DNA of 64,000 nt, from contig JBIIHQ010000004.1 of the NCBI GenBank assembly GCA_044235645.1, positions 185,562-249,561 of the forward strand. Direction: 5' to 3'. Shown here one piece after another: positions 31,166-48,178 of this stretch. The position numbers and the translations under genes were made by a program. Below the pieces are notes generated by a model. It saw only the letters and a program-made list of their open reading frames with translations. It had not been told where the DNA came from and did no database searches. The number at the start of each line of letters is the position of its first letter. The stretch's first letter is position 1. The DNA comes from Bdellovibrionota bacterium (GTDB lineage Bacteria; Bdellovibrionota_C; UBA2361; OMIW01).

Positions 31166-32413
31166 ATGAGCGATCTTCTGAATGTTGATTACGGAGCAGG
31201 AGGGGTAACCACCCATATGCGACCCCGACCACTCGGGGATGACCTCCACTCCGAAACGATGATTCTCAACATGGGGCCGGCCCATCCGGCAACTCATGGC
31301 ACGGTTAGGTTGGTCGTCGAACTTGAGCATGAAAAGATTATCGATGCAGATGTTGAGGTCGGCTACCTGCACCGCGGTTTCGAAAAGATGTGTGAAACCG
31401 TCGATTATAACCAGGTAATGCCGTATGCCGATCGGCTCAATTACGTTTCGCCGATCATCAACAACGTAGGATGGTGTCTCACTATAGAAAAATTAATTGG
31501 TATCGAGGTGCCGAAGAGGTGTCAGTATGTCCGGGTGGTGATGTCCGAAATATCGCGGATCTCCGACCATTTGACTTGCCTTGGAGCATCGGCGATGGAG
31601 CTTGGTGCCTTTACCGTGATGCTGTACCTCATGCAGGCTCGTGAGGCTTTGTGGGAGCTTGTTGAAGAGGTTACCGGTGCTCGGTTGACGATTTCATATG
31701 GGCGAGTAGGAGGTCTTAAGTCTGATCTGCCGGATGGATTTGCAACTCGAATGGCAGCGGCGTTTAAGCAGGTCAGATTCCAGATGGAGCAAAGTGATAA
31801 GCTCTTGAGTCGAAATCGGATCTTCATTGACCGCATGTGCGACGTGGCGGTGCTCTCGGCTGATGAGGCGATAGCCTACTCGATTACAGGTCCTCTGCTT
31901 CGTGCCTCGGGAGTTTCGTATGATGTGAGAAAGGCATTTCCATACTCATCCTACGAGGATTTTGATTTTGAGGTCCCGGTGGGCACGAAGGGTGACAATT
32001 ACGATCGATTTCAGGTTCGGATGGCGGAGGTGGAGCAGTCGATGCGTATCTGTGAGCAAGCGATGGCTCGTTTGCCAGAGGGGCCGATATCAGTCGATAA
32101 TCCGAGAATCGTGCTTGCCCCGAAGGATGAAGTATATGGATCTATCGAGGGTATGATTAGCCATTTTGAGTTGGTCATCAAGGGTATTGAACCTCCAGAA
32201 GGTGACGTCTACCAGATGGTCGAAGGGGGGAATGGAGAGCTCGGATTCTTTGTGGTCTCTGACGGAACTGGAAGACCCTATCGAGTTCATGTGAGAGCGC
32301 CGAGTTTCATCCATATGGGTGCAATGAAGAAGATGCTCGTCGGCCAGTCGGTGGCGGATATTGTGCCCACTTTTGGCATGATAAATATGATTGGAGGGGA
32401 GTGCGATAGGTAG
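31166..32413 (+). CDS. nuoD: NADH-quinone oxidoreductase subunit D (49 kDa)
   Basis: ETMILNMGPAHPATHGTVRL...GYLHRGFEK and the C-terminal region VRAPSFIHMGAM. The start at MSDLL was chosen by alignment; the ORF is open from 31088. Confidence 0.9.
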   Translation: MSDLLNVDYGAGGVTTHMRPRPLGDDLHSETMILNMGPAHPATHGTVRLVVELEHEKIIDADVEVGYLHRGFEKMCETVDYNQVMPYADRLNYVSPIINNVGWCLTIEKLIGIEVPKRCQYVRVVMSEISRISDHLTCLGASAMELGAFTVMLYLMQAREALWELVEEVTGARLTISYGRVGGLKSDLPDGFATRMAAAFKQVRFQMEQSDKLLSRNRIFIDRMCDVAVLSADEAIAYSITGPLLRASGVSYDVRKAFPYSSYEDFDFEVPVGTKGDNYDRFQVRMAEVEQSMRICEQAMARLPEGPISVDNPRIVLAPKDEVYGSIEGMISHFELVIKGIEPPEGDVYQMVEGGNGELGFFVVSDGTGRPYRVHVRAPSFIHMGAMKKMLVGQSVADIVPTFGMINMIGGECDR

Positions 32414-32516
32414 AGGAAGCGGGATAGCGCTGAACTTTTTTCGTATAAGTGAGGTTTTTCCTGAGAAGCAAGGAAAGATGCCTCGAAGAGATTTTAAGCA
32501 TAGGTAATGGGACTGT

Positions 32517-33074
32517 ATGGATGTCGATTTGCCAGCCGATTTTGAGGCAAAATTAGTCGAGGTAAAGAAGCAGTACCCGCAATCCCGTTCGGCTATCATG
32601 CCAGCGCTGTACCTAGCTCAGCAGCATTTCGGCCACATATCGCAAGAGGCGGTGCGGTGGGTCTCCTCTCGGCTGGATATTCCTCCGGTTCATGTAATGG
32701 AGGTGGCATCGTTCTATACGATGTACTACAAAAAGCCGATCGGCCGGTACCATGTTCAGGTTTGTCGTACTCTTTCGTGCGCGGTCAGGGGAGCTCCCGA
32801 ATTGACGTCGTGTGTAAAGAGACGATTTGGCACCAAAGCTCACGAGCCGACCTCCGATGGGCAGTGGAGTTTCGAGGAGGTTGAGTGCCTCGGATCGTGT
32901 GGTACGGCTCCGATGGTCCAGATAAATGATTTTTATTTTGAAAATCTTGACCCTGAAAAGCTGGAAGCATTGCTTGATCGAATTGAGAAGGAACAGCCCG
33001 ATCTTCGTTTGTCTTCAGTAACCGATGCCATGTCAGGGGGACTGCCCGGTTGTCCAAAGTCGGAGGTAATATGA
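32517..33074 (+). CDS. nuoE: NADH-quinone oxidoreductase subunit E (24 kDa, 2Fe-2S)
   Basis: CRTLSCAVRG...ECLGSCGTAPMVQIND, the thioredoxin-like 2Fe-2S ligand pattern. Confidence 0.88.
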   Translation: MDVDLPADFEAKLVEVKKQYPQSRSAIMPALYLAQQHFGHISQEAVRWVSSRLDIPPVHVMEVASFYTMYYKKPIGRYHVQVCRTLSCAVRGAPELTSCVKRRFGTKAHEPTSDGQWSFEEVECLGSCGTAPMVQINDFYFENLDPEKLEALLDRIEKEQPDLRLSSVTDAMSGGLPGCPKSEVI

Positions 33075-34795
33075 CAGTGACTCCTTCCGATATCTCAGCG
33101 AATCCTACGTCTGGGCAAGGTGGACTCGCCTCGGAGGAATCGCCGGTTGTGACGCAATGTGGTGTGCCTGAAAGCGATTTGGTCACGGTCACGATCGATG
33201 GTTCTCAAGTCCGGGTTCGAAAAGGAACCAATATCATTGAGGCTGCCCGATTACTGGGCAAGGAAATTCCTCATTATTGCTATCATCCCGACCTCTCAAT
33301 AGCTGGCAACTGTCGGATGTGCCAGATTCAGGTGAAGGGGGTGCCTCGGCTGTCGATCGGGTGTAATACCAGTGCAACAGAAGGAATGGAGGTCACGACC
33401 CAGGCCACCGATTCGGGGGTCGTGGATGGCCAGGCCTCAGTCCTCGAGTTTATCTTGGCGAACCATCCCCTGGATTGTACTGTCTGCGATCAAGCAGGTC
33501 ATTGTAAGTTACAGGACTATCACTACGAATATAACGGTCGTCCCAGCCGATTTCTCGAAGATAAAGTCCACAAGGTTAAGGCGGAACCTCTCGGACCGAC
33601 GGTCATGCTGGATGGTGAGCGATGCATCATGTGCTCGCGATGTGTACGGTTCTGTGATGAGATAACGGGGACTTCAGAAATCGGGCTCCTCAATCGGGGA
33701 GATCGCACCGTTATTGCAGTTAGTCCTGACCGACCGCTTGACAATCCACTCTCGGGGACCGTGGTGGATCTTTGTCCGGTCGGTGCGCTGACTCATCGGG
33801 AGTGGCGTTTCAACTCTCGGATATGGTTTTCCAAGCAGACTGATGCAATTTGTCCCGGATGTTCAACGGGGTGCAATGTTCGGGTGGCCGTTCGGGACGC
33901 ACACGAGGTCGTTCAGGTCAAGGCTCGTTATAATCAGGCCGTGAATAAGGAATGGCTCTGTGATGAGGGCCGGTACGGGTTTGGGCGATTTCTCCCTCGA
34001 GATAGGCTTACATCACCATCAGTAGGGGGAAAGTCGGTAACGTTATCTGAGGCGCTCCGAGCTCTTCCCAAGTCTTCCGAAGATGAGGTAGCAATATTTG
34101 TTGCGCCCGACCTCATCCTTGAGGAGTACATTATCCTTCGTCGCTTTATCCAGGCGCGGATGCCTCGCGCTTTTGTCGCTCTGGCATTTCGAGAGCGGGA
34201 ACTAACTTCAGTTGAGAAGATTCTTATCAGCCCTGATTATGCGGCCAACTTCAGGGGAGTGCAAATTGGGCAGCTTTTTCGTCGTGAAGAGGGAGGCGAA
34301 GCGGCTGGAGATGGCTCGCTGGGAGAGAAGTTCTTGGGGGATCGATATGAGATGGCGCTTCGCAAACTTCGGGGCGGAGTGTTTTCCCGAGTGTTCTTCA
34401 TCGGAGAGCGCGCGATAGCAGGTAATGATCTTGATGCCGAGATATTATCTGCGGTACGGGCATGTCAAACATCGCTATTCATTGGCACGGATGAGACGAA
34501 TCCTTTGGTTTCAGCGGTCTCTGTGGTAATCCCGGGGCGCAGTATCCTCGAAAAAAGTGGCTTGGTCGTTAACCGCGCCTACCACCTCCAGTACACCGAG
34601 CGGGTGGTTGAGCTACCTGAGGGAACCATGCCTGAATGGAGAGTGCTCAATGAATGGGCTACGATCTCAGGGGGTGCATTGGTTGCTTCTCAAAACGATC
34701 GGGAGCTTACATTGGAGATTCTGTCCTCAGAGGAGCGGCTCAAGGGCTTGCGCCTAAAAGATATCAAGGCTGGTGGGGTTTCACTCGCGACTTAG
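33050..34795 (+). CDS. nuoG: NADH-quinone oxidoreductase subunit G (75 kDa), short form
   Basis: N-terminal 2Fe-2S ferredoxin-like region, the N5 cluster motif HPLDCTVCDQAGHC and the 4Fe-4S motif CIMCSRCVRFC. At 581 aa it lacks much of the long molybdopterin-like C-terminus. Confidence 0.85.
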   Translation: MSKVGGNMTVTPSDISANPTSGQGGLASEESPVVTQCGVPESDLVTVTIDGSQVRVRKGTNIIEAARLLGKEIPHYCYHPDLSIAGNCRMCQIQVKGVPRLSIGCNTSATEGMEVTTQATDSGVVDGQASVLEFILANHPLDCTVCDQAGHCKLQDYHYEYNGRPSRFLEDKVHKVKAEPLGPTVMLDGERCIMCSRCVRFCDEITGTSEIGLLNRGDRTVIAVSPDRPLDNPLSGTVVDLCPVGALTHREWRFNSRIWFSKQTDAICPGCSTGCNVRVAVRDAHEVVQVKARYNQAVNKEWLCDEGRYGFGRFLPRDRLTSPSVGGKSVTLSEALRALPKSSEDEVAIFVAPDLILEEYIILRRFIQARMPRAFVALAFRERELTSVEKILISPDYAANFRGVQIGQLFRREEGGEAAGDGSLGEKFLGDRYEMALRKLRGGVFSRVFFIGERAIAGNDLDAEILSAVRACQTSLFIGTDETNPLVSAVSVVIPGRSILEKSGLVVNRAYHLQYTERVVELPEGTMPEWRVLNEWATISGGALVASQNDRELTLEILSSEERLKGLRLKDIKAGGVSLAT

Positions 34796-34882
34796 GCTCT
34801 AGGTAAGCATTGAAACTGAGGGCATGAAAAGGGCGAATGTAACCAGTAACGAATTAGGCCGAGGGCGCAAAAAGAGGAATGT

Positions 34883-35974
34883 ATGGAATTGTTGATTCTT
34901 GGGGTCAAGGTTTTCGTCCTCTTTAACATAATCATGGGCCTTTCATCCTTTTGTACGTGGTTCGAGAGGAAGGGATCCGCTCTGATTCAGAATCGCATTG
35001 GTGCCAACCGGGCGGGAGCGTATTTCACAACCTCGGTTGCACCGCTTCGTCCAGCGTTCTTCGTCGTTCGCTGGCTTGGTATTCTGGGGGTTATTAACAC
35101 TCTTTTGTGTGACGCTGTGAAGGCTTTACTCAAAGAGGATTTCGTTCCCGAGGGGACCTCCACGGTCATGCATGCGCTGGGCCCTCTTCTCGCGGTTCTG
35201 CCGGTTTTCGTCGCGTTCGCGGCGATTCCAATGGCACCAGCCTTCGCCGTTGGCGGGATCACGATCCTTCCTCAGGTCGCACCTATTGATTCGGGACTCT
35301 TATTTATCCTTGCGATGGGTTCGCTTTCAGTTTACGGCGTAGCTATGGCAGGATGGACGGGGAACAATAAGTTTTCGCTCCTCGGTGGATTGCGAGCGGC
35401 GGCTCAAATGGTTTCCTATGAACTCGCAATGGGACTCTGCTTCGTTACCGCTGTTGTCATTTTTCAAACTCTCGACCCATATCAGATGGTTCGCCAGCAG
35501 GCGGGATCAATCACCAATTGGGGAATATTTTCGCAGCCGCTCGGATTTTTCATACTTTTTATAGTAGGGATGGCCGAGACTAAGCGAGGACCATTTGATC
35601 TGCCTGAGAGTGAATCAGAATTGGTTGCGGGGTATTTCACCGAATATTCAGGGATGAAGTTTCTGATCTTTTGGTTGGGGGAGTTTGCGGAAATTGGCCT
35701 TTTTTCCCTCCTTCTAGCTATCCTCTTCTTCGGTGGTTGGGAGATCCCGTTTATCACCCTTCCGGAGGGGCTTTGGTGGGCTGCCCTTGTGGGGCATGGA
35801 GTATTGATGGGTAAGGTAATCGTCCTTTCGATGCTCCAGATTATTATCAGGTGGACGCTTCCCCGCTTTCGGTTCGATCAGTTGATGTCGCTTGGTTGGA
35901 AGGTGTTGCTGCCGCTCTCCATGGTGAATTTGATGGTCACGGCGGCCGTTCGATTGGCAATCGCGCACCGATGA
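34883..35974 (+). CDS. nuoH: NADH-quinone oxidoreductase subunit H
   Basis: Polytopic membrane protein with NuoH/ND1 motifs (QNRIGANRAG...SLLGGLRAAAQMVSYE). Confidence 0.9.
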   Translation: MELLILGVKVFVLFNIIMGLSSFCTWFERKGSALIQNRIGANRAGAYFTTSVAPLRPAFFVVRWLGILGVINTLLCDAVKALLKEDFVPEGTSTVMHALGPLLAVLPVFVAFAAIPMAPAFAVGGITILPQVAPIDSGLLFILAMGSLSVYGVAMAGWTGNNKFSLLGGLRAAAQMVSYELAMGLCFVTAVVIFQTLDPYQMVRQQAGSITNWGIFSQPLGFFILFIVGMAETKRGPFDLPESESELVAGYFTEYSGMKFLIFWLGEFAEIGLFSLLLAILFFGGWEIPFITLPEGLWWAALVGHGVLMGKVIVLSMLQIIIRWTLPRFRFDQLMSLGWKVLLPLSMVNLMVTAAVRLAIAHR

Positions 35975-36046
35975 TTGAGGAGTTCTTCCCTTCAAAGGGC
36001 TCTTAAAGGCTCGGAAATTTCCATACAGGGTATCGGGAGATAGTAG

Positions 36047-36553
36047 ATGATGTCGGTAACGATAGCGATTTTATCCGTGTGTATGCTGACCACAGCGGTC
36101 TCCGTTGTTGCGGCGAAAAGCCCGATTGTGAGCGCACTCGCCCTTGTTGGTAATCTTATAACGGTAGCTGCATTGTATGCGGCGATGAATGCACATTTTC
36201 TTGCGGCTGTTCAGATACTCGTGTACGCCGGCGCAATAGTCGTTCTCGTTCTTTTTGTCCTGATGTTGCTGAATATAAAGGGCGAGGCGGGAAGAAGAAG
36301 TGATTTTATCCTGCGGGTGGCGGCTTCGATCATCGCGGGGTTTTTTCTGCTTACAGTGCTTCCTCTCTGGGATGAATGGCTTGGTTTAGACAACCTCTCA
36401 GCACCAGAGGGAACGGTACGAGCGATAGGAAAGCTCGTTTACACGGACTATGTATACTGTTTCGAGGTCGCCTCAATTCTAATTCTCATTGCAGTTGTCG
36501 GAGCGGTAACGCTAGGACGACGCGCTCGAATTCCGAATATCGCGAGCGAATAG
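36047..36553 (+). CDS. nuoJ: NADH-quinone oxidoreductase subunit J
   Basis: ND6-like N-terminal helices (AAVQILVYAGAIVVLVLFVLMLL). It comes immediately after nuoH, with no nuoI between them. Confidence 0.85.
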   Translation: MMSVTIAILSVCMLTTAVSVVAAKSPIVSALALVGNLITVAALYAAMNAHFLAAVQILVYAGAIVVLVLFVLMLLNIKGEAGRRSDFILRVAASIIAGFFLLTVLPLWDEWLGLDNLSAPEGTVRAIGKLVYTDYVYCFEVASILILIAVVGAVTLGRRARIPNIASE

Positions 36554-36599
36554 AGGGGATTAAAGAGAACTCGGGGGCCCTTAGATTAAAGGAATCGTC

Positions 36600-36902
36600 A
36601 TGGAGCCGATACATACCATACTGGCGATAGCCGCTATAACGTTTGCGATTGGAGCTGTTGGAGTTATTGTCCGTCGTAACGTAATCGTCGTGTTCATGTG
36701 CATTGAGCTCATGCTGAATGCGGTGAACCTCTCATTTGTGGCTTTTTCTCAGTCGGTGGGAAATCTTACCGGTCAAGTGGCGGTCTTTTTCGTAATGGTC
36801 GTCGCTGCAGCTGAGGCCGCGGTAGGGCTCGCCATCTTTATTGCGCTGTTCCGCACTGCTCGTTCAGTTGAATCCACCTCGGCTACCGAACTAAGGCTGT
36901 AA
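36600..36902 (+). CDS. nuoK: NADH-quinone oxidoreductase subunit K
   Basis: 100 aa, three transmembrane helices, with the ND4L signature [19 protein letters not shown]. Confidence 0.9.
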
Positions 36903-36905
36903 CGT

Positions 36906-38810
36906 ATGGACACTCGGCAGGTTATTACCTCCCTCGATCCCGCACTTATTCCATTAGCACCGCTCGTAGGGGCCGTTGCAGCGTATGGATTAGGTCGGAA
37001 AAACCGAGTTTTTTCGGGATTAATTGCTACCTTTGCGGCACTCGTTGCGTTTGCCTTGACCATAAAGGGGATTTTTGATCTTGCTCCTTCAGGAATCAAA
37101 GAGGCGCATCTGTGGCGATGGTTCGGGGTGGGGCAAGTTGCCTTCGATATGACGCTGCGTTTAGACCGACTTTCCGCGGTCATGTGTCTTGTCATCACTG
37201 GCATCGGCTCGCTCATCCACCTGTATTCAACCGCCTATATGGCCGATGATGACGGTATGCCCCGATTCTTCTCGTATCTTAATCTGTTCCTCTTCTCAAT
37301 GCTCGTTTTGGTCTTGGGAGGGAATCTATTGGTTCTTTTTATCGGATGGGAGGGGGTCGGGCTCTGTTCTTACCTCCTCATCGGTTTCTGGTTCCGCAAT
37401 TTAGATTATTGTGGAGCGGGTCGAAAAGCCTTCGTGGTAAATCGGATTGGAGACGCGGGAGTGCTCCTCGGCATATTTCTATTGCTCAAGCACTTTGGAA
37501 CGGTCGATTTTCTCGCTCTCAATGATCGTTTGGGTGAGGCAGCAGCCCTCTTTGACCCCTCACTTACGGCAGTCTGTACCCTAATCGGTTTCTGTCTATT
37601 CGTCGGCGCGACGGGAAAGTCTGCTCAACTCCCCCTCTTTGTGTGGTTACCCGATGCAATGGCAGGTCCCACTCCGGTGTCAGCACTTATCCATGCGGCC
37701 ACGATGGTTACCGCCGGTATTTATCTATTTGCTCGGGCGAACGTCGTTTTTGATGCGGCCGGTGCTGAGTTGGGTCTTATCGTCGTTGTCGTCGCCGCTT
37801 TGACAGCCTTTATCTCAGCGACAATCGCGGTCGCTCAGAATGACATAAAGAAAGTTCTCGCCTACTCGACCGTAAGTCAGCTTGGGTTCATGTTTCTTGC
37901 GGCTGGAGCGGGAGCCTATTGGGTCGCGCTCTTCCATGTCATAACCCACGCATTCTTTAAAGCGTGCCTCTTTCTCGGAGCTGGCTCGGTCATTCATGGT
38001 TGTCATCATGAGCAAGACATGCGGCAAATGGGTGGTTTGCGACGTTTGATGCCGGTGACCTTTATCACCTATTTTATCAGTACTTTGGCAATAGCTGGGA
38101 TATATCCGTTTGCCGGCTTTCACTCAAAACACGCTATTTTGGCATCGATAAGTGAAAGTCCAAATAACCTCATCGTGGCATCCGCTCCGATAATTGTCCT
38201 CATTTCGAGTGTGACTGCGGGCTTAACAGCTTTTTACATGACTCGATCACTTGTATTGACGTTTTTCGGTGCTTATCGAGGCCATGCTCACCCGCATGAA
38301 TCACCTTGGAGGATGACGGTTCCTCTTGTTGTCTTGGCGGTGTTAGCGGTGATTGGTGGTATTGGGCTTGAGCATTCACTTCCACATTATCTGGAGGCGG
38401 TCCTTCCCCGGGCTCATGCCCACGACTCCCTCAGTCCAATTGATTCGTTGGGGGCCTCCTGGATTGGAGTTCTCGGTGTGCTCATTGGAGTAATTCTTTA
38501 TGGTCCGTTGGCCAGCCTTCCTCCAGCCATTGCGAAGGCAATCCCCCATCTTTTGAAGCTTTTGCAGGGTAAGTACTTCATCGATGAGGTGTATCAGATT
38601 TTCATCGTTCGGCCCTTAGAGGGACTATCGAGAGTCTTATGGCGAGGCGTCGATCAAGGGGTTATTGATGGTACAGTAAATGGGACCGCTGAAGTCGTAG
38701 AGGTTTCAGGGGAGCTCGTGCGCTCGATGCAAACGGGAGACGTCAGGCACTATGCTCTCTATCTTTTTGGGGCGATCGCGACGATGGTAGCGGTCTATCT
38801 CGTCTGGTAA
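36906..38810 (+). CDS. nuoL: NADH-quinone oxidoreductase subunit L
   Basis: 634 aa antiporter-like subunit with motifs such as GWEGVGLCSYLLIGFW and the long C-terminal lateral helix region. Confidence 0.92.
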   Translation: MDTRQVITSLDPALIPLAPLVGAVAAYGLGRKNRVFSGLIATFAALVAFALTIKGIFDLAPSGIKEAHLWRWFGVGQVAFDMTLRLDRLSAVMCLVITGIGSLIHLYSTAYMADDDGMPRFFSYLNLFLFSMLVLVLGGNLLVLFIGWEGVGLCSYLLIGFWFRNLDYCGAGRKAFVVNRIGDAGVLLGIFLLLKHFGTVDFLALNDRLGEAAALFDPSLTAVCTLIGFCLFVGATGKSAQLPLFVWLPDAMAGPTPVSALIHAATMVTAGIYLFARANVVFDAAGAELGLIVVVVAALTAFISATIAVAQNDIKKVLAYSTVSQLGFMFLAAGAGAYWVALFHVITHAFFKACLFLGAGSVIHGCHHEQDMRQMGGLRRLMPVTFITYFISTLAIAGIYPFAGFHSKHAILASISESPNNLIVASAPIIVLISSVTAGLTAFYMTRSLVLTFFGAYRGHAHPHESPWRMTVPLVVLAVLAVIGGIGLEHSLPHYLEAVLPRAHAHDSLSPIDSLGASWIGVLGVLIGVILYGPLASLPPAIAKAIPHLLKLLQGKYFIDEVYQIFIVRPLEGLSRVLWRGVDQGVIDGTVNGTAEVVEVSGELVRSMQTGDVRHYALYLFGAIATMVAVYLVW

Positions 38811-38862
38811 GTTCTCTCTTTTTTACAGAATCGCAACACAAGAACGGCGGAAAGGCGGAGAG

Positions 38863-40506
38863 GTGGAGGAGAAAATGAGCATGGCGTTACTAGACGGATT
38901 TCCGCTGTTGAGTGCACTCGTATGGCTACCTTTGCTGGGAGCCGTTCTTCTCTACGCAATCCCCGGGGGGAACTCTGCAGAGGGGCGGTTGCGATCAAGG
39001 GGATTGGCTCTCGGATTCACCGTGGTGACTCTGATTTTGTCATTGCTCGCTCTGAGTCGATTCTCGCCGAATCAGCCCGGTTATCAGCTGGTGGAGTCGT
39101 TTCGTTGGATTGAGTCTCTCGGTGTCCGATACGAGTTGGGCATCGATGGGGTAAGTCTAGCACTGATTCTGCTCACGACGATTCTCATGCCCTTGATAGT
39201 CCTTTCTTCCCACTCAATTCATGAGTCACTGCGTGGGTATCTTTCCTGTATGCTCGTTCTCGAAACTGCGATGCTGGGCACACTAGTTGCTCTAGACCTT
39301 TTTCTTTTTTATCTTTTCTGGGAGTTCATGCTTGCTCCGATGTATCTCATCATTGGGATATGGGGAGGGAAGCGCCGAGTTTACGCGAGTATGAAGTTCG
39401 TCCTTTATACCGCAGTCGGAAGTGTTCTCATGTTCGTAGCGATACTTTATACGTCTTGGATGGCGTATGATCAGGCGGGTGTTCAGCTTCCCTCGTTTCT
39501 TCTTGGCGATCTCTTGCAGGCTCGATTCACTCTTCAGGAGCAGATGTGGCTCTTTGCAGCATTTGCGCTTGCGATGTGCATAAAGATACCTCTTTTCCCG
39601 CTCCATACATGGTTGCCAGATGCGCATGTCGAGGCTCCGACTGGAGGGTCTGTTGTATTGGCAGGTGTTCTTCTGAAGATGGGCCTTTATGGACTTTTTC
39701 GATTTGGATACCCGCTGTTCCCTGATGGGGCGGCCGTTTTTGCGCCGTATCTGGCAGCGCTTGCGGTTGTCGGAATAATTTATGGCGCTTGCATTGCGTG
39801 GGTTCAGATTGATATCAAAAAGCTGGTCGCGTACTCCTCAGTATCTCATCTGGGATACTGCGTACTGGGAATGGTCGCCGGTACTAGTCTCTCGGTGACA
39901 GGGTCGACAGTTCAGATGATTAATCATGGAATCTCGACCGGAGCTCTCTTCCTTCTTGTCGGTGTGCTTTATGATCGGACTCACACGAGGCTAATAGCCG
40001 ATTATGGGGGCATTGCAGCGAAAGTACCGGTCTTTGCAACGCTATTTTTACTATTCACGCTGAGCTCGATAGCCCTTCCTTTAACCAACGGGTTTGTCGG
40101 AGAATTTATGATCTTGGCGGGTAGCTTTGAGACCTATCCCATGCTCACCCTTTTTGCTTTGGCCGGTGTTGTACTCGGAGCCGTATACATGCTCACGCTG
40201 TACATGAAAACCATGTACGGAGAGGTTAATCCGGCGAGGGAAGGATTGACGGATATTCGCCTCATCGAAGCGGTTACCCTGACCCCGTTGCTAATCCTGG
40301 TATTTTGGCTCGGGTTGTTTCCTCAGCCTCTGGTTGATCTAATCGAGCCCTCCGTGGTGCGTTCGCTCCAAATAACGAGAGAGCGAGCGCATGTGCTTCG
40401 GGAGGCTGAGGTGATCCGAGAGGCTCTCATCCCTGAGGATATGACGCCTCGGGGTGTTTCTATGAACAAGCAAAGTGAACAACATTCCCACCGAATGTCG
40501 CTCTAG
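38863..40506 (+). CDS. nuoM: NADH-quinone oxidoreductase subunit M
   Basis: 547 aa antiporter-like subunit (WLPDAHVEAPTGGSVVLAGVLLKMG). Confidence 0.92.
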   Translation: MEEKMSMALLDGFPLLSALVWLPLLGAVLLYAIPGGNSAEGRLRSRGLALGFTVVTLILSLLALSRFSPNQPGYQLVESFRWIESLGVRYELGIDGVSLALILLTTILMPLIVLSSHSIHESLRGYLSCMLVLETAMLGTLVALDLFLFYLFWEFMLAPMYLIIGIWGGKRRVYASMKFVLYTAVGSVLMFVAILYTSWMAYDQAGVQLPSFLLGDLLQARFTLQEQMWLFAAFALAMCIKIPLFPLHTWLPDAHVEAPTGGSVVLAGVLLKMGLYGLFRFGYPLFPDGAAVFAPYLAALAVVGIIYGACIAWVQIDIKKLVAYSSVSHLGYCVLGMVAGTSLSVTGSTVQMINHGISTGALFLLVGVLYDRTHTRLIADYGGIAAKVPVFATLFLLFTLSSIALPLTNGFVGEFMILAGSFETYPMLTLFALAGVVLGAVYMLTLYMKTMYGEVNPAREGLTDIRLIEAVTLTPLLILVFWLGLFPQPLVDLIEPSVVRSLQITRERAHVLREAEVIREALIPEDMTPRGVSMNKQSEQHSHRMSL

Positions 40507-40568
40507 AGAACTGAGCGGCGAGCAAGGGTGAGGGAAGAATAAATAATACACCACAAAAAAGGGGTGTC

Positions 40569-42062
40569 ATGACAAATGTCACGGAATGGGTCCCGGTGAT
40601 ACCGACAGCGGTGCTCGGATTGGGTGGAATGGTGCTAGCTTTAGCGCCTCGAGGAGGAGAGCGTATTCCAGCGTTTGGGGCTCTCGCTCTCGTGGTGATC
40701 GCCCTCAGCGTGGCATTACTATTTGATGGTGGATACACCGTCAGTGTCGGAGCTTCTCGCATCCCAGATGCAGGGTTGTTTGGAGCGGGGTTTCTTTCTG
40801 ACCCCTTTACGTGGTTCTTCACTGTTCTTGTTCTGGTGGGAACCCTCGTCGTTGTGGCAATGTCGTTCGGTCGGCTCGCATCGCTCGGGATATCGTCGAG
40901 TCCAGAATATTACGGTCTCTTGTTGATGACTTCGGCCAGTGCGATCGTGTTGGTTGGGGCGGGTGAGCTAATAACCCTCTTTGTCGGCCTTGAAGCGTTA
41001 TCGTTAGGTCTTTACTGTCTCTGTGGGTCTGCGGTTAGTTCTCGAAGGAGCGTCGAGGGGGCTCTCAAATATTTTATTCTTGGGTCCTTTAGTTCTGCAT
41101 TTCTGCTTTACGGGATGTCGGTTTTATATGGGGTCACCGGAAGCACTGAACTTGCGGTGATTGCCCGAGCGTTGGTCTCGGTAAGACAAATTCCGGCTAT
41201 TTTTGGAGTGGGACTGATTCTTGTAGGAGTCTTCTTCAAGCTTGGGGCGGTTCCGTTCCATTTCTGGGCGCCTGATGTGTACCAAGGAGCACCTACTCCG
41301 GTCACAGCCTACATGGCAAGTGTGGTCAAGGCTGCAGCGTTGGCGATGGCAATGAGGCTCCTTTGGGTTGGCTTTGGTCATATGGAGGTTGCGGGTTGGT
41401 GGCTTGGTAGTGCGTGGACCGTCGCGCTCTTGACCATGATAGTCGGTAACATAGTTGCCGTTCGGCAGCGTAATGTGAAAAGGCTGCTCGCGTATTCAAG
41501 TATCGCTCATGTGGGATACATGATGGCAGCGCTTCTGACTCCAGGGGCGCGAGCAGCCGGGGGGGGAGCTCTTCTCTTCTATATCGTTGCGTACTCCGTG
41601 GTTACCTTCGGTGCATTTGCGGTTACAATGGCTGTAACTGGCGACCGTGTTGAACATCCATCTGCCGACGATATAAGTTCTTTTGCTGGGCTCTCACAAA
41701 CTAATCCACGAATTGCTGCTGCGATGACCCTTTTTCTGCTCACCCTGGCGGGGCTTCCTCCGGGGATTGTCGGTCTTGTTGGAAAGTTCTATCTCTTGAG
41801 CGTAGTTGTTCAATCTCATTTTGTGGGGCTTGCAGTGGTGGCCGCGCTATGTTCGGCCATTTCATGTTACTTCTATCTGAGGGTCATAACTGCCATGTAT
41901 GTGCACCAAGTAACGGATGTAACGCCTGCCCACTTTGTCTCTCCCTTGGGTACCCGGATTGTGATCGGGTCGATGGTCGCAGCATCAATTATCCTTGGGG
42001 TATTGCCCTCATTTCTTTACAACAGGGCCCAAGCGGTTGCTCACGGAGTTTTTGTCAGATAG
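40569..42062 (+). CDS. nuoN: NADH-quinone oxidoreductase subunit N
   Basis: 497 aa antiporter-like subunit (FHFWAPDVYQGAPTPVTAYMASVVKAAAL). It is the last gene of the nuo cluster. Confidence 0.9.
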   Translation: MTNVTEWVPVIPTAVLGLGGMVLALAPRGGERIPAFGALALVVIALSVALLFDGGYTVSVGASRIPDAGLFGAGFLSDPFTWFFTVLVLVGTLVVVAMSFGRLASLGISSSPEYYGLLLMTSASAIVLVGAGELITLFVGLEALSLGLYCLCGSAVSSRRSVEGALKYFILGSFSSAFLLYGMSVLYGVTGSTELAVIARALVSVRQIPAIFGVGLILVGVFFKLGAVPFHFWAPDVYQGAPTPVTAYMASVVKAAALAMAMRLLWVGFGHMEVAGWWLGSAWTVALLTMIVGNIVAVRQRNVKRLLAYSSIAHVGYMMAALLTPGARAAGGGALLFYIVAYSVVTFGAFAVTMAVTGDRVEHPSADDISSFAGLSQTNPRIAAAMTLFLLTLAGLPPGIVGLVGKFYLLSVVVQSHFVGLAVVAALCSAISCYFYLRVITAMYVHQVTDVTPAHFVSPLGTRIVIGSMVAASIILGVLPSFLYNRAQAVAHGVFVR

Positions 42063-42528
42063 CCATAAGAAATCGTGGGACGGCCGCAAAAAAAGTAATT
42101 TCTGCGGAGAATCCGGGGGTTTTCGTTTTTTTTTCCGTTGATTGTTCTGAGCTGTATTCTTATAGTTATCGAGTGCAAGCCGAGAAGGGCATGCAACAGG
42201 TATCGAGTCGATCAGAGAAGGGGTGTATTTCCTGAAATCTCGCCGGAAATTTCGGGATTACTCTGGTCGGCAAGGGGAGAGCTGTCTTGTCGTTATGATC
42301 GGAAAGCAGAGAACTGTAGGGTTCCTGTTCAGGTCCTCAGTGGCATCACTTGTGATGTTCCGCTGGTCGACGAGTTTAACCATGTCATCTGAATTCACGT
42401 GACCATACCGTCGCAAAGTGCGCGCAGCTTTTGTCATTTTGCCGCCCATTTCCCGGTCGGTAAGGTGGGATCCGGTGCGAGAATCCGGGGGGCAAGTGAT
42501 GAAGGATTTTTTTATGAGGGATAGTACC

Positions 42529-43035
42529 ATGGCCGCAAAGCCCGCAAAGAAAGGCAAAGTAGAAAAGAAAGTTGCAACTAAGAAAGCGCCCGTTGCTAAG
42601 AAAGCTGCAGCAAAACCCGCGAAGATAAAGACAGTAAAGAAAGTTGCAGCTCCCAAGGCTGTGAAGAAGGTTGCAGCTCCTAAGGCTAAGAAGGCCGTTG
42701 AAGGAGGTTCGAAGGTTCAGCAGATCGTAAAGCCCAAAAATACAAATGGTAGCTTCACTCAGTCTGAGTTCCTCGAAAATCTCCGTTCCTACTGTGGCTT
42801 GCAGAAGCGTTCACAGGCAAAGGAGCTCGTGGGCGATGTTCAAAAGCTCATCCAGGATTCTCTCATGAAGGGCTACAAGATACCCTTCTTTGGTCTTGGT
42901 AAGCTCTATGTGCGAGCCACAAAAGAGCGCATGGGCCGAAATCCGCAGACGGGCGCGCCGACCAAGATTCCCGCGCGTAAGCGAGTGCGGTTCACCCCTG
43001 CGAAGGCTCTCAAGGAGGCTATCCTTAAGAAGTAA
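42529..43035 (+). CDS. HU/IHF-family DNA-binding protein with a lysine/alanine/proline-rich histone-H1-like N-terminal extension
   Basis: The C-terminal ~90 aa form an HU fold with the DNA-binding arm GLGKLYVRATKERMGRNPQTGAPTKIPARKRVRF. The N-terminal ~70 aa consist of AKPAKK/KKVAAPKA repeats. The start at MAAKPAKK has a GAGGG RBS; the ORF is open from 42418 (GTG). Confidence 0.8.
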   Translation: MAAKPAKKGKVEKKVATKKAPVAKKAAAKPAKIKTVKKVAAPKAVKKVAAPKAKKAVEGGSKVQQIVKPKNTNGSFTQSEFLENLRSYCGLQKRSQAKELVGDVQKLIQDSLMKGYKIPFFGLGKLYVRATKERMGRNPQTGAPTKIPARKRVRFTPAKALKEAILKK

Positions 43036-43254
43036 GGGGGGAAGAGGGGGGACACCTCCTCTACTCCCATAGTGCAGTTAGTGGGGGCCAGTAAGAGGTC
43101 GCCATTTGTGTACCCCGGTGGAGTCCAGCTATATCAGTTGGGCATCATCGGGCTTTTTGTTATCCACGAGCAAAATAATTCAATGGAAGGTCCCCACTCC
43201 CATCCAGGGGCGAGCGGTCATATGAAAACTCTGAACGGTAACGGAGTCTTGCTG

Positions 43255-43719
43255 TTAGTCGGTCTTTGATTCAACAAGTTTAATGGATTCTTTTCTTAGT
43301 CTGTCAGCTTCCTTGTAGTTGTGCTCCGCGATCCGCCACAGATCAATCGTTTCTTCCAACCGAGCTCGTAAGTTGCTCTCCGTTTCTCCGTCTAGCCCGG
43401 AGTACGTCTGAGGAGGAAGGATCTTTTCGACAGGTGGAATTTCTTCCAACTTACCCAGGAGGCGAAATAGCTCCCCCACCACCTGTTCATCAACGGGGAA
43501 GCCCGGCACACGCTCGATAATTCCCTCGACCCGCTCTATCTGGTGAGCTAGAAATCCTTCAAGATAATCCCTCTCCTCCAGGAGGCTCGGTGCTTCTCCC
43601 TCAATCTTGATCTGCGATGCTCGGCTCCACGTCGTTAAGCGATTGAGGGTAAGTATCGGCTCTAAAATCTGAGAGGCTTGTTTTGATGTAATCATTTTGG
43701 TCGTTCCGTCAAACACCAA
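43255..43719 (-). CDS. hypothetical acidic protein (154 aa)
   Basis: ORF only, with no recognisable domain. It lies between the HU-like gene and the HdrD-like oxidoreductase. Confidence 0.4.
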   Translation of the reverse strand: MVFDGTTKMITSKQASQILEPILTLNRLTTWSRASQIKIEGEAPSLLEERDYLEGFLAHQIERVEGIIERVPGFPVDEQVVGELFRLLGKLEEIPPVEKILPPQTYSGLDGETESNLRARLEETIDLWRIAEHNYKEADRLRKESIKLVESKTD

Positions 43720-43820
43720 TAAGTTTTTGCTTCCGCATCAGGGGCAGCGAGAGCAAAGGGAATGCTGACAATTAATTCCCCCGAGAGCCCCCATGCAATC
43801 AATAAATTTCTGCACTCCAA

Positions 43821-46040
43821 TTAAGCACCCTCGGGTGTCAAATGTTCAACCAAAACTTCTGCTATATCCCTTACCTGAAGAGTAGCCTCGCGATTAGTGA
43901 GCTTTACGCCGTCTTCAAGCATTTGGTGGCAGAATGGACAACCAGTCGCCACGGTCGTTGCGGCCGTTTCGGCAGCTTGATTTACCCGAAGGACATTCAC
44001 CCGTTCGCCCTGTTTGAGGTCCATCCAGAAATGTCCCCCGCCCGCTCCACAGCAGAAGCCCTTTTCCCGGGAGCGTTCCATCTCCACAATCTGAAGACCT
44101 CGAATCGCTTTGAGGGGTTGGCGTGGAGCCTCATATTCGTCATTGTACCGACCGAGGTAACAGGGATCGTGAAAAGTTATCTTTTCGGCCCCTTCGCTCA
44201 GCCGGAGTTTTTCCTCGGCAACCAATTTCTTGAGAAGTTGGGAGTGATGAATAACCTGAGGACCGCCGTTCGTGCCAAAGCCGAATTCAGGGTACTCATT
44301 CTTGATCGTGTTGAAGCAGTGAGGACAATTCGCCACGATATAGCGACATTTGATTGACCGCAACAGCTCGATATTTGATTTGGCGAGGGTCTGGTATAGA
44401 TTCTCTTCGCCAAGTCGACGGGCGGGATCGCCGGTACAAGATTCTTGGTTGCCGAGGATTCCGAACGATAATCCCGCCGCTCGCATTAAGGCGACCAGGC
44501 TTCGCGCAATATTTTGCTTCCGTGGGTCAAACGCAGAAAGGCATCCTACCCAGTAAAGGTAGTCGACATCGTCACCCGGCTGAACAATTGGAATGTCGAG
44601 ATCTTTCGCCCATGAGGCGCGACTGTTGGGGTCGCCGTAGGGGTTGCCCCGGTTTTCAAGGGACCGCAGGGTTGCCTGGGCCTCAGCAGGTATCTCTCCA
44701 TGCATGAGCGCCATGTTGCGGCGATTGCCGATTATTTGGTCGATATGGTCTATGCCGACCGGACATGCGGTAACGCAGGCGCGACAGGTGGTGCATGACC
44801 AAAACACCGCAGGGTCCATTACATCGCCAGCAATCCGATCGTCCCAGGAGCCTCCCAATCGTCGAGCGGTTCTCTGCACGGCCTCATTGCTCCCCCGGTA
44901 ATCTCCGACGCTCGAATACCCTGTACCGTCGGTGTGCGGAGTAACTCCGCTGCGAGGAAGGAAGATGCCGGTCAGAAGAGCGCTGTCAACTGCTCGCAGA
45001 GGAGCGGGAACAATTGATGAATGTGGGGGTGCTGAGGAATCTTGGGCATGGAGCGCAAGCATGTGGTTACGGGAGTCGAGAATGAGCCATTTGGGCGAGA
45101 GTGGCTTACCGCTCGCATAGGCGGGGCAGAGGTCCTGACAACGTCCACAGCTGGTGCAAGCATCGAGATCGAGGAGGTGCTTCCATGTATAGTCTCGGAG
45201 CGAGCCGAGGCCAAATGTCGGTTCCTCGTCTGAGGACATGATTGCCTCGATGTCGCCGATGGCAGTGAGTGCGCCCTTAGGTTGGTTTGATTCTCGAAAA
45301 AAGAGATTCAGAGAGCTCGACACGATATGAAAGAGTTTGGAATAGGGGAGGAGAGCAATCCCTGCGAAGACGGTAATCGTATGCCACCACCAGATGATGC
45401 TGTGAAGAATGCGAGCAGCGTGCGGGGATATCGGCCAAAAGAGACGAGCTGTTACTAATCCAATTGGTGAATAGGGAGCCCATGGATCTCGAGTAACGTG
45501 AATGCGCAGCCCCTCAAGGAGAAAGCCCTGTATCACCAATACGGCAATTATCAGCAGGAACACCCAATCGGCAACTCGAGAATGAAGCTTGTCCGGTCGA
45601 TCAAGATACCGACGCTTCGCTGCAAGAGCGACCCCAATCAGGACTGCGAAACCGAACAGATCGCTCAGGATTGTCAGAGCAATATAAAAGGATCCACGAT
45701 AGATCGGGATGCCGAAATCGTGATCGAGCATCACCATTGTTGTTGTTACCGTCAGAACAACAAAGCCGGTAACTATCAGGGAGTGAAAGGCGCCAGCCCG
45801 TCGATCTCGATTTGTCAGTCTTTGCGAGAGAAGCCTTGATGTACAGAGAAGGGTGCGCTCAATCCAGCTTCCCGAGCGGTTTGGATCGGGTCGCCCCGTT
45901 GACCATAGCTCGAGGCGGCGGATGATGCCAACCACCACGACTCCAAGAGTAGCCCCAAAAAGAAGGTAAAGTAAAACAACGTTATGCAGAGATGATACGT
46001 TCCAGAGGATTTCACGCGAAGCGGAGGAGAATTGATTCAT
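43821..46040 (-). CDS. membrane-anchored Fe-S oxidoreductase: NarI/DsrM-like cytochrome-b transmembrane domain fused to an HdrD/DsrK-like module (two 4Fe-4S motifs plus two CCG domains)
   Basis: N-terminal transmembrane helices, the 4Fe-4S motifs CTSCGRCQDLCP and CTTCRACVTACP, and two CCG domains (VGCLSAFDP...CPHCF and DPCYLGR...CCGAGGG). The start is uncertain; the ORF is open to 46217. Confidence 0.72.
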   Translation of the reverse strand: MNQFSSASREILWNVSSLHNVVLLYLLFGATLGVVVVGIIRRLELWSTGRPDPNRSGSWIERTLLCTSRLLSQRLTNRDRRAGAFHSLIVTGFVVLTVTTTMVMLDHDFGIPIYRGSFYIALTILSDLFGFAVLIGVALAAKRRYLDRPDKLHSRVADWVFLLIIAVLVIQGFLLEGLRIHVTRDPWAPYSPIGLVTARLFWPISPHAARILHSIIWWWHTITVFAGIALLPYSKLFHIVSSSLNLFFRESNQPKGALTAIGDIEAIMSSDEEPTFGLGSLRDYTWKHLLDLDACTSCGRCQDLCPAYASGKPLSPKWLILDSRNHMLALHAQDSSAPPHSSIVPAPLRAVDSALLTGIFLPRSGVTPHTDGTGYSSVGDYRGSNEAVQRTARRLGGSWDDRIAGDVMDPAVFWSCTTCRACVTACPVGIDHIDQIIGNRRNMALMHGEIPAEAQATLRSLENRGNPYGDPNSRASWAKDLDIPIVQPGDDVDYLYWVGCLSAFDPRKQNIARSLVALMRAAGLSFGILGNQESCTGDPARRLGEENLYQTLAKSNIELLRSIKCRYIVANCPHCFNTIKNEYPEFGFGTNGGPQVIHHSQLLKKLVAEEKLRLSEGAEKITFHDPCYLGRYNDEYEAPRQPLKAIRGLQIVEMERSREKGFCCGAGGGHFWMDLKQGERVNVLRVNQAAETAATTVATGCPFCHQMLEDGVKLTNREATLQVRDIAEVLVEHLTPEGA

Positions 46041-46275
46041 CTGAAGTGCCAGGGGTCGAAGGGTGCGGATTGATGCCGGAAATCGTGATGAGTTGGACGA
46101 GTCACCCAGATTGGGGGAATAAGCCCGCAATCTCTCGCGGTGTGTCTTTCGATACCATACCTCAAGCTGGCTGAATAATAATCCCCTTATCGTCAACCAA
46201 ATCCTCTTTTTTCGCACCAGGAGTGAAATTCATCGCATCGTATCGTGGAATGTCGTCAACACTTCGGGAGAAAGC

Positions 46276-47070
46276 ATGGGCGAAGGGCGAAAACCGGGAA
46301 GGCCACAAACGCGTTCTCTCCGTGAGCAGATTGAAAAACAGGCGACACGGCGGAGCTGCCTCGTTGACTTGCGCGTTCATAATCCCGCAGTGGTCGGTTA
46401 TTCGGGTGTGGATGGTATTGATCCAGCGCGTGCATTAGTCAGCCTCGCTCGGGTGAAAGGTATTGATATCATGGCGATATCTGACCTCTACGCGACGGAC
46501 TTTATTGACCGGGTCCAGCTCGCGAAGGGAGACCAGCCGATTATCATTATTCCGGGCGTTGATCTTCGGTGTCGTCTCGGGAATTGTGACGACATCGTTC
46601 TTTCGTGTCTTTTCCCGGAGCAAAATGGCTCAGCAGCTCTCTCAGAGTTTCTTTTTCAGCTGGCAATCCCACGTTCTGCCGCAGGTAACGAGCAGATCAT
46701 CGTCAATCGACCGATTGATACGATAATAGCGCTGACCGAGAAGCGTCAGGGGGTCGTGCTTCCGATTCGAGTGGACAAAACTCCGCATCGTGCTCAAGCA
46801 ATTCCTGATATGGTGGAGCGATGGGGGTTTAGAGCCTTTGACCTCGCCTATGGAGAGTCTGCGAGAATTTTCTCCGACAGGTGGCCGAAGGATAAGTTTC
46901 ATCTATTTAATTTTTCGAACGCGTACGCGCTCGCTCAGGTGGGCACAAGGAGCGTTCGACTAAAGTTAACCAGTCCAGACTTTGCTGGTATTAGGGAGCT
47001 CCTCATGCGACGGAGCGATCGAACTGACGCCGGGATTAGTTCCATTGATGAGCTGCGAAAAGGGGGCTAA
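46276..47070 (+). CDS. PHP-domain-like protein (degenerate metal-binding motif)
   Basis: The N-terminus VDLRVHNPAVVGYSGVDGIDPARALVSLARVKGIDIMAISDLY resembles the PHP (polymerase/histidinol phosphatase) domain start, but the canonical HxH is replaced by HNP. Confidence 0.45.
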   Translation: MGEGRKPGRPQTRSLREQIEKQATRRSCLVDLRVHNPAVVGYSGVDGIDPARALVSLARVKGIDIMAISDLYATDFIDRVQLAKGDQPIIIIPGVDLRCRLGNCDDIVLSCLFPEQNGSAALSEFLFQLAIPRSAAGNEQIIVNRPIDTIIALTEKRQGVVLPIRVDKTPHRAQAIPDMVERWGFRAFDLAYGESARIFSDRWPKDKFHLFNFSNAYALAQVGTRSVRLKLTSPDFAGIRELLMRRSDRTDAGISSIDELRKGG

Positions 47071-47263
47071 TCTGAATAGGCTGCGAAGTCCCCAATGACC
47101 CTGATTAGCTCTTCTTCACAACCCGGAGGAGCGCTCAGGCCTTGAGCAGACATCCGCAATAATTTGATGTGTCTCTGATCAAGAGGTTTACTATTCGTCA
47201 GAGTCTATTGAACCTGGTGATCGAATCCCATCCCCACTTTTCCCGGTTGGTGAAGATGACCCT

Positions 47264-48178
47264 ATGGATAGCACATTGCTTATTGGCTCTGCCTCAGCAA
47301 TCCTTGCGGCATTTATCTGGGCTGTCGCCAGTGGTACCTACAGCAGAGCGGCGCTCAGCCATCCCCCATTCGTCGTTAACGCCACGAGGACTTTGGTCTG
47401 CGTCATGGTTCTGTCCGCAATCAATACTATCCGACCGGACGGATTCTCCGGATTTTCTGCCGTCACAGCCAGCCATCTGAATTGGATGGTGCTAGCAGCT
47501 TTTTCTAGTTATAGCTTCGGTGATGCACTGTTTTTGAAAGCCTCACACCATATCGGGATATCAAATGCACTGACGATTGGTTCAAGTTATCCAGTAATCT
47601 CCGCCATCGTAGGAGTCCTCTGGTTTCGTGAAAAAATGAGTCTTGCGTTGGGATGTGGAGTGGTGCTGGTTGTTCTGGGTATGGGATGTGTATTGCGTAG
47701 TCCAAGGTCGAGCACGTCTCGAGCGAAAAGCGAAGCTCAAACGGAGGTTCTTTCAGCGAAGGGGTTGTGTTATGCAGTCGGGGCGACTTGTTGTTGGGCA
47801 TTCCTGACCGTTGCCACGCAAAGGGCAGCATTCCAGATTGATGGTGTCGTGGCGACAATTTTGAAGGCATCTATCGGTTTTTTCCTCTGTGTAATCGTGG
47901 GATTCCTGATGGAGCGCTCAATCCGTTACCCACTCCTCCCTCGGGTTGAATTTTGGTCAATCTTTCCTATTTGTGCGATTGAGATGGGCATTGGATCGCT
48001 CTGTTACACATATGCATTCCAATTCGCTCCGCTCGCCGTCGCAGCTACGCTTTGCTCAATCCACCCGATATTCTCTCTTGTCATTGCAGTACGAGCTGGA
48101 CAGGAGCGCCTTTCCTTACGAAAAATTATCGGAATGATCCTTGTCATTTCGGGGATAGGAAGTGTGGTGTCCAGTTAA
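47264..48178 (+). CDS. DMT-superfamily (EamA-like) transporter
   Basis: Ten predicted transmembrane helices arranged as two EamA-like halves. Confidence 0.75.
   Translation: MDSTLLIGSASAILAAFIWAVASGTYSRAALSHPPFVVNATRTLVCVMVLSAINTIRPDGFSGFSAVTASHLNWMVLAAFSSYSFGDALFLKASHHIGISNALTIGSSYPVISAIVGVLWFREKMSLALGCGVVLVVLGMGCVLRSPRSSTSRAKSEAQTEVLSAKGLCYAVGATCCWAFLTVATQRAAFQIDGVVATILKASIGFFLCVIVGFLMERSIRYPLLPRVEFWSIFPICAIEMGIGSLCYTYAFQFAPLAVAATLCSIHPIFSLVIAVRAGQERLSLRKIIGMILVISGIGSVVSS

Follow-up and report, generated by a model that had tools for sequence, protein, structure and literature searches.

A probable EtfD/EMO-type electron transfer flavoprotein:quinone oxidoreductase encoded in an uncultured Bdellovibrionota bacterium

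A stretch of 64,000 nucleotides from contig JBIIHQ010000004.1 of an uncultured Bdellovibrionota bacterium (assembly GCA_044235645.1), referred to below as the window, contains on its reverse strand a large gene (43821..46040) that encodes a single polypeptide of 739 residues with a cytochrome-b-like membrane domain, two ferredoxin-type motifs and two CCG domains. The encoded protein is most probably an EtfD/EMO-type electron transfer flavoprotein (ETF):quinone oxidoreductase, which would feed electrons from β-oxidation into the respiratory chain; we put the probability of this assignment at about 0.8. The assignment is based on the full-length homology of the protein to an EtfD of known structure, the retention of all cofactor ligands, and the genomic association of family members with genes for ETF (etfAB) and for acyl-CoA dehydrogenases. 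It does not represent a new kind of system: publications from 2021 to 2026 already describe the EtfD/EMO family, its partner and its structure.

Genetic and co-immunoprecipitation work on the EtfD of Mycobacterium tuberculosis (Rv0338c) showed that it is required for β-oxidation, acts at the acyl-CoA dehydrogenase step and brings down EtfB (PMC8593149, 2021). In the EtfD of Mycobacterium smegmatis, two unusual clusters in the CCG domains, two cubane clusters and a heme b lead to menaquinone, and membrane vesicles show ETF-dependent, butyryl-CoA-driven proton pumping (PMC13083937, 2026). The family member from Syntrophus aciditrophicus, the ETF:methylmenaquinone oxidoreductase EMO, has been solved both alone and in complex with ETF (bioRxiv 10.64898/2026.08.18.745454). 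The initial annotation of the window had described the substrate of such proteins as unknown and the redox partner as not evident. The first of these statements is outdated, given that the relative concerned is EtfD, with its links to EtfBA and β-oxidation (PMC8593149, PMC13083937), and the second is superseded by the EtfD match, the ligand conservation and the ETF and acyl-CoA dehydrogenase context described below.

Similarity to mycobacterial EtfD and conservation of the cofactor ligands

In a search against all sequences in the Protein Data Bank (PDB), the best match of the window protein is chain A of entry 9OJN (E-value 2.3e-119, 402 bits), the cryo-electron microscopy structure of M. smegmatis EtfD (PMC13083937), which was deposited as an 'iron-sulfur-binding reductase'. 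The alignment spans residues 68-733 of the window protein and residues 61-745 of the chain, with an identity of 37.8% over 643 aligned positions. The next-ranked PDB matches are HdrC and HdrB, at only about 23 bits. The likeness to actinobacterial membrane-anchored HdrD-like proteins that had been noted initially is thus borne out, the best solved relative being mycobacterial EtfD.

To locate the cofactor sites, the ligand list of the EtfD paper (PMC13083937) was transferred to the window protein via a HMMER alignment, with numbering from Met1 and a cross-check against the positions of the cysteines. The ligands of the proximal heme b, His78 and His241 in 9OJN, correspond to H86 and H238, and the conserved 'distal' His223 corresponds to H220, while the heme-propionate arginines Arg137, Arg150 and Arg306 are equivalent to R144, R155 and R300. 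The two cubane [4Fe-4S] clusters, D4 and D3, have their ligands at C295, C298, C301 and C426, and at C305, C416, C419 and C422, respectively. Cluster D1, bound in 9OJN by Cys503, Cys538, Cys581 and Cys584, maps to C500, C535, C572 and C575. Thr539 of 9OJN, which replaces a Cys of Hdr and dictates a linear [3Fe-4S] cluster in EtfD (PMC13083937), is retained as T536, and its presence at the D1 site predicts a linear [3Fe-4S] cluster in the window protein as well. The ligands of the non-cubane [4Fe-4S] cluster D2 (Cys637, Cys672, Cys673, Cys709 and Cys712 in 9OJN) are found at C627, C663, C664, C701 and C704, together with H574 as the equivalent of the D2 ligand His583. Among the 27 positions mapped in this way, all cofactor ligands are retained and the sole difference concerns Phe230, a menaquinone contact; the other menaquinone contact considered, Phe85, is present as F93.

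Nearly all cysteines of the window protein (17 of 19) are mapped cluster ligands. These 17 cysteines are invariant in all 82 aligned family members, as are H574, H238 and R300. H86 is retained in 79 and R144 in 80 of the 82 sequences, which in both cases means every sequence that covers the column in question. A signature formed by C-T in the first CCG motif and C-P-H-C around the D2 histidine (CT/CPHC) is common to the window protein, M. smegmatis EtfD and 47 other sequences, together 49 of the 82. Judged by this signature, the window protein belongs to the mycobacterial ('CT/CPHC') subtype of EtfD, because it shares the motif with the M. smegmatis protein, whereas S. aciditrophicus EMO has a His-Gly pair and a [4Fe:5S] cluster.

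The domain set of the window protein is the same as that of HdrE plus HdrD or DsrM plus DsrK, and it may be asked whether the protein is instead a quinol-linked thiol/disulfide reductase of the HdrDE, DsrMK or HmeCD type in one chain, in which the membrane cytochrome b would draw electrons from quinol and the CCG clusters would reduce some disulfide. The homology of the family with Hdr is stressed in both EMO/EtfD papers (PMC13083937; bioRxiv 10.64898/2026.08.18.745454), and weak, partial matches to DsrK, TmcB, HmcF and HdrB/C models and structures are indeed observed. The scores against the NCBIfam models nevertheless stay far below the respective cut-offs, with 70.6 versus 400 bits for DsrK, 78.3 versus 735 bits for TmcB, 50.8 versus 750 bits for HmcF, and 25.7 versus 345 and 34.7 versus 160 bits for the HdrB/C models. 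Moreover, H574 at D2 and T536 at D1 are the changes that render the clusters of EtfD fully ligated and shielded (PMC13083937), and because both residues are present a disulfide-reductase function is highly improbable. Sulfur-metabolism and methanogenesis genes are likewise absent from the window, according to Pfam scans of its open reading frames. The DsrMK/HmeCD-type architecture in a single polypeptide, as proposed initially, therefore holds for the arrangement of the domains, but the likeness is architectural only.

The boundaries of the gene need some comment. The open reading frame 43821-46217(-) was verified and comprises 798 codons counted from a GTG, but the true start is almost certainly the ATG at 46040, because homologues of the protein are 725-745 residues long, because the identical 739-residue product of this ATG is present in public collections, and because in L081, a locus with a 95%-identical relative, a stop codon interrupts the in-frame upstream extension of etfD. 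In another related locus, L082, the etfD product begins at the Met equivalent to ATG 46040. Both loci speak against the long start at GTG 46217, which was rejected.

Pfam recognizes in the protein a Nitrate_red_gam (NarI-like) domain, several Fer4 families at two sites and, with 116 bits over two stretches, the CCG domain. The NarI-like membrane domain (residues ~15-245; 45306..45998, reverse strand) is outlined by the Pfam match and the 9OJN mapping and contains five hydrophobic helices, in line with a Kyte-Doolittle scan, in which the N-terminal part shows five hydrophobic segments within residues 15-240. It is followed by an HdrC-like domain (residues ~290-430; 44751..45173, reverse strand) with Fer4 hits at the two cubane [4Fe-4S] sites, which have ferredoxin motifs of the CX2CX2CX3CP type (C295-x2-C298-x2-C301-x3-C305-P and C416-x2-C419-x2-C422-x3-C426-P). 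The C-terminal half of the protein is rich in cysteines and includes the two CCG domains that bind the D1 and D2 clusters (residues ~495-735; 43836..44558, reverse strand), as judged from the Pfam hits and the ligand mapping. Transmembrane helices, two 4Fe-4S motifs and two CCG domains had all been recognized in the initial annotation and are confirmed by Pfam and hydropathy, with two corrections: the start codon, and the first CCG domain, which reads C-T-G rather than C-C-G.

Genomic context of the family and the electron donor

A scan of one genome per species gave 596 loci of the family. The best 80 of these were retained for gene calling, and the 142 immediate neighbours of the homologues were scanned against Pfam in one batch. 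The closest loci (52-60% identity) derive from metagenome-assembled genomes (MAGs) labelled Bdellovibrionota, Bdellovibrionales, Oligoflexia or 'Deltaproteobacteria', and those at 33-40% identity from Chloroflexota, Acidimicrobiia, Dormiibacterota and others. The commonest Pfam families among the neighbours are ETF (17) and ETF_alpha (15), followed by CNNM/CBS/CorC (10), every one of which comes from the closest clade. The three acyl-CoA dehydrogenase domains are found in 5 of the 142 neighbours. Genes of the Dsr or Hdr systems, some of which had been suggested initially as possible partners, do not take this place, which further argues against disulfide reduction. A local phmmer search identifies etfA as the immediate upstream neighbour of etfD, in the same orientation, in about 18 loci, among them those of a second Bdellovibrionota clade (L032, L038, L051). 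Both the gene context and the literature tie the family to ETF and β-oxidation.

In an unrooted neighbour-joining tree of close homologues, the Bdellovibrionota-labelled MAGs form two well-separated EtfD clades. One of these (L032, L038, L051 and L079) has etfA-etfD operons, and its EtfD proteins are 35-37% identical to the window protein. The other (L001-L009 and L019) is the clade of the window and has no adjacent ETF genes. Within the latter clade, four loci with ~58% identity to the window EtfD have a gene for an acyl-CoA dehydrogenase of 381-386 residues directly after etfD (L002, 12188-13333; L003, 7400-8560; L004, 12184-13329; L007, 7937-9091). In L002 the dehydrogenase gene abuts the stop codon of etfD, and in L003, L004 and L007 there is a four-base overlap with it. 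The corresponding slot in the window is occupied by a small acidic orphan gene.

Several observations weigh against the assignment as an EtfD. Not one of the 15 closest-clade loci, with identities ranging from 52 to 95%, has etfAB within 10 kb, and at this degree of relatedness the link to ETF therefore rests on the acyl-CoA dehydrogenase neighbours and on homology. Pfam scans of essentially all open reading frames of at least 150 residues reveal no etfA, etfB or acyl-CoA dehydrogenase gene in the 64-kb window. According to an AlphaFold3 prediction, mycobacterial EtfD contacts ETF through a disordered C-terminal region, which the window protein does not have. Gly takes the place of Phe230, a residue stacking on the menaquinone modelled in the M. 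smegmatis structure; the modelled menaquinone site is itself disputed by the EMO authors (bioRxiv 10.64898/2026.08.18.745454). Finally, none of the NCBIfam equivalog models scores above its cut-off, although NCBIfam apparently does not contain an EtfD model.

The gene context also bears on the nature of the electron donor. The protein could form the same wire to quinone but accept its electrons from a donor other than ETF, either a directly docking dehydrogenase, as has been proposed for other CCG proteins (GlpC, GlcF, LutA, LdhH and DgcB-like systems), or the acyl-CoA dehydrogenase of the adjacent gene, docking without ETF. Such an arrangement would be compatible with the complete lack of adjacent etfAB in the closest clade, where a dehydrogenase gene yet overlaps or abuts the etfD stop codon, with a CCG region that partly resembles LdhH, GlpC and TfrB, and with the several proteins besides EtfB that were pulled down with M. 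tuberculosis EtfD (PMC8593149). The NCBIfam models of the directly docking systems, on the other hand, match the C-terminal part only and score far below their cut-offs (GlpC, 66 versus 278; GlcF, 23 versus 333; LutB, 17.6 versus 445; LdhH, 118 versus 800), as do those of QmoC and TfrB, which again give partial matches. All D1 cysteines are present, unlike in FadF and DgcB. Acyl-CoA dehydrogenases are classically dependent on ETF (established biochemistry; PMC8593149), and the mycobacterial etfD gene is also unlinked to etfBA and yet depends on it (PMC8593149). Neither glp nor glc nor lut genes turned up in the Pfam scans of the window, with the scope given above. Electron supply by another donor than ETF is unlikely. 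Clear orthology to a characterised enzyme, which the initial annotation had named as what would overturn its reading, with GlpC and LutA as examples, is essentially given, but the enzyme is EtfD rather than either of these, whose models stay below their cut-offs.

Proposed electron path and comparison with known systems

With EtfD as the preferred assignment, the following path can be proposed. Acyl-CoA dehydrogenases, and possibly other ETF-dependent dehydrogenases, would reduce soluble ETF, which would then dock at the cytoplasmic CCG domain and hand over electrons one at a time to the non-cubane [4Fe-4S] cluster, to the predicted linear [3Fe-4S] cluster beside it, or to both. From there the electrons would pass through the two cubane [4Fe-4S] clusters to heme b with its two His ligands, and quinone would be reduced there, in the five-helix membrane domain. 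In this manner electrons from β-oxidation would enter the respiratory chain that is also used by the neighbouring complex I. ETF as the donor in the host, the quinone used, the downhill direction of the reaction and the number of hemes (one, like the M. smegmatis protein, or three, like that of Syntrophus) are elements of this path that we infer.

The window protein resembles mycobacterial EtfD (Rv0338c; 9OJN) over its full length and has the same five-transmembrane-helix cytochrome b, two cubane clusters and two CCG domains. The likeness extends to the Thr where the linear [3Fe-4S] cluster is bound and to the His that ligates the non-cubane one. In M. tuberculosis the etfD gene is unlinked to etfBA (PMC8593149), and the etfD gene of the window is likewise not adjacent to ETF genes. 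The two proteins differ in length, with 1042 residues for mycobacterial EtfD versus 739 residues here, since a disordered C-terminal region of ~13-30 kDa is missing in the window protein. The hosts differ as well, the window deriving from a Gram-negative-type bacterium with genes for lipid A and TonB receptors; the nearest EtfD relatives are found in Bdellovibrionota/Oligoflexia MAGs.

S. aciditrophicus EMO (706 residues) has the same three-domain organization in a single chain of comparable size, and its three heme-ligand His positions are conserved throughout the family. In EMO a His residue blocks the site that in Hdr accommodates the substrate, and H574 is its equivalent in the window protein. 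The residue after the blocking His is a Gly in EMO, which has a [4Fe:5S] distal cluster, whereas the window protein has a Cys at this position (C-P-H-C) and a Thr in the first CCG motif. EMO further contains three hemes and operates in a reverse redox loop driven by the proton motive force in an anaerobe; the genes of the window give no hint of such a lifestyle.

Other EtfD homologues are Bacillus subtilis FadF and Pseudomonas aeruginosa DgcB, which are tied to β-oxidation and dimethylglycine catabolism. Their C-terminal tail is short or absent, as in the window protein, but they lack the D1-binding cysteines (PMC13083937), all four of which (C500, C535, C572 and C575) are kept here. HdrDE, DsrMK and HmeCD, which combine a NarI-like cytochrome b with an HdrD-like CCG iron-sulfur protein, share an evolutionary origin with the window protein. 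They consist of two subunits instead of one chain, and their non-cubane clusters are catalytic and accessible to substrate, with a full complement of cysteines, in contrast to the C-T-G motif and H574 of the window protein. The canonical ETF-QO of mitochondria and many proteobacteria has the same proposed role, electron transfer from ETF to quinone, but is a non-homologous, monotopic protein with flavin adenine dinucleotide and a single [4Fe-4S] cluster.

Flanking genes and implications

The small acidic orphan gene (43255..43695, reverse strand) lies 125 nucleotides downstream of etfD on the same strand. Its maximal open reading frame starts at TTG 43719, but the start is most likely ATG 43695, because gene callers and homologues place it there; the product is then a protein of 146 residues and not of 154, the length assigned initially. 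The other features noted at that time, its acidity (28 Asp and Glu versus 19 Lys and Arg) and its orphan status, were confirmed: the protein has no Pfam or NCBIfam match. It is predicted to be all-helical, with an AlphaFold2 model of low confidence (pLDDT 56). A word-indexed search yielded two homologous clusters and an exhaustive HMMER search over 1.84 billion representatives added a third, at 43% identity, so that only three clusters (99%, 84% and 43% identity) are found. Compared with L081, the gene differs at 18 first, 11 second and 37 third codon positions, amounting to 32 synonymous and 24 non-synonymous codon changes. Because the differences are enriched at third positions, the gene looks like a real but fast-evolving one.

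The small gene holds the same place after etfD in loci L081, L087 and L086, and wherever context is available it lies between the 3' end of an etfD homologue and the HU and nuoN genes. In relatives at 52-65% identity this slot contains an unrelated or unrecognisable open reading frame, an acyl-CoA dehydrogenase gene, a gene of the major facilitator superfamily (MFS), or nothing. The positional conservation of the small gene is thus confined to a narrow lineage. An open reading frame of 140 residues that follows etfD in L082 was considered as a further homologue and rejected, as the BLASTP match covers 28 residues and is non-collinear, and the MAFFT alignment is unconvincing. A terminator-like hairpin with a T-run (43182..43204, reverse strand) after the small gene is compatible with a joint transcript of etfD and the small gene. 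The evidence from this site is weak, because a scan of positions 42000-47400 for promoters and terminators counted no more sites than shuffled sequence would lead one to expect.

Divergent to etfD lies a gene (46276..47070, forward strand) for a protein of 264 residues that was initially described as PHP-like with a degenerate metal-binding HxH motif, and the predicted structure supports this description. An AlphaFold2 model based on an alignment of 43 sequences has a pLDDT of 83.7, and in a Foldseek search against the PDB the top 20 matches are all PHP proteins, with a probability of 1.0 and TM-scores of 0.45-0.63. The predicted fold, a distorted TIM barrel, matches those of PHP phosphoesterases such as TM0559 (PDB entry 2ANU), RNase AM and the PHP domain of the Pol III α subunit. 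Matches to PHP-containing sequence models are weak, with 13.1 bits versus a cut-off of 26.4 for the Pfam PHP family (PF02811). Motif I reads D31-L-R33-V-H35-N-P in the window protein and D-L-[R/K]-x-[H/N] across the 43 family members. The first His of HxH is Arg or Lys in all aligned members, and the second varies between His and Asn. Invariant arginines are numerous in the family (R98, R172, R186, R225 and R245). A total of 175 homologous clusters was found and, in the loci examined, the gene occurs within the clade of the closest EtfD relatives. The protein is probably a clade-restricted, non-catalytic member of the PHP fold, and the family is a candidate for a PHP pseudoenzyme or an anion-binding protein.

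The positions of these two genes raise the question whether, together with etfD, they make up a new functional module, in which the two additional proteins would be accessory subunits or regulators of the oxidoreductase. Four independent contigs, with identities as low as 43%, have the small gene directly after etfD, with a terminator-like site after it and none between the two genes. In the closest clade, 12 of 15 loci have the PHP-like gene upstream of etfD at a distance of at most 3.5 kb. The HU and nuo genes are, however, kept in the same conserved block, and a gene order inherited from common ancestry accounts for the pattern. The PHP-like gene and etfD lie on opposite strands, and most relatives carry a CNNM transporter gene between the two. 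At 52-60% identity the small gene is either missing or has an acyl-CoA dehydrogenase, MFS or other gene in its place. A module of three genes is accordingly improbable. That the PHP-like gene works together with etfD is unsupported; given the conservation of HU and nuo in the block, the divergent orientation and the CNNM gene that usually intervenes, their proximity is read as inherited gene order. The arrangement of etfD, its flanking genes, HU and nuo is block synteny within one clade and not a sign of a common function. There is a slim chance that the small protein is an accessory subunit or an ETF-docking adaptor that replaces the disordered tail through which mycobacterial EtfD is predicted to bind ETF, with the PHP-fold protein possibly a further partner.

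The closeness of the region to complex I and HU genes, which had been noted initially, is evident: nuoL, nuoM and nuoN (36906-42062) and the HU gene (42418-43035) adjoin it, and more nuo genes lie upstream. The complex I cluster (30400-42062, forward strand) has the order nuoC-D-E-G-H-J-K-L-M-N, the part from nuoG to nuoN (nuoG-H-J-K-L-M-N) being covered in the same order in L081. There is no space for nuoF between nuoE (32517-33074) and nuoG (33050-34795), nor for nuoI between nuoH (34883-35974) and nuoJ (36047-36553). Upstream of nuoC neither nuoA nor nuoB is present, and the opposite strand carries a gene for a UvrD-like helicase there. Either the genes for the missing subunits lie elsewhere or complex I is unusual. 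The HU gene (forward strand) is found near etfD in most loci of the window's clade and encodes, before the Bac_DNA_binding domain, a histone-H1-like N-terminal extension of ~75 residues that is rich in Lys, Ala and Pro. Further away, three open reading frames without a Pfam match at E≤1e-4 (16875-18020, reverse strand, 381 residues; 23487-24851, reverse strand, 454 residues; 24924-26894, forward strand, 656 residues) sit among genes for MoxR-type AAA, transglutaminase-like, TPR and Ser/Thr kinase proteins. In scans of the whole window, neither a tRNA gene nor an Rfam family scoring above its gathering value was detected.

The assignment as an EtfD/EMO-type protein would turn the label of an unknown iron-sulfur oxidoreductase into a specific role, the entry of β-oxidation electrons into the respiratory chain of an uncultured bacterium. 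The protein also extends the sequence signature of the mycobacterial-type linear [3Fe-4S] cluster to another bacterial group.

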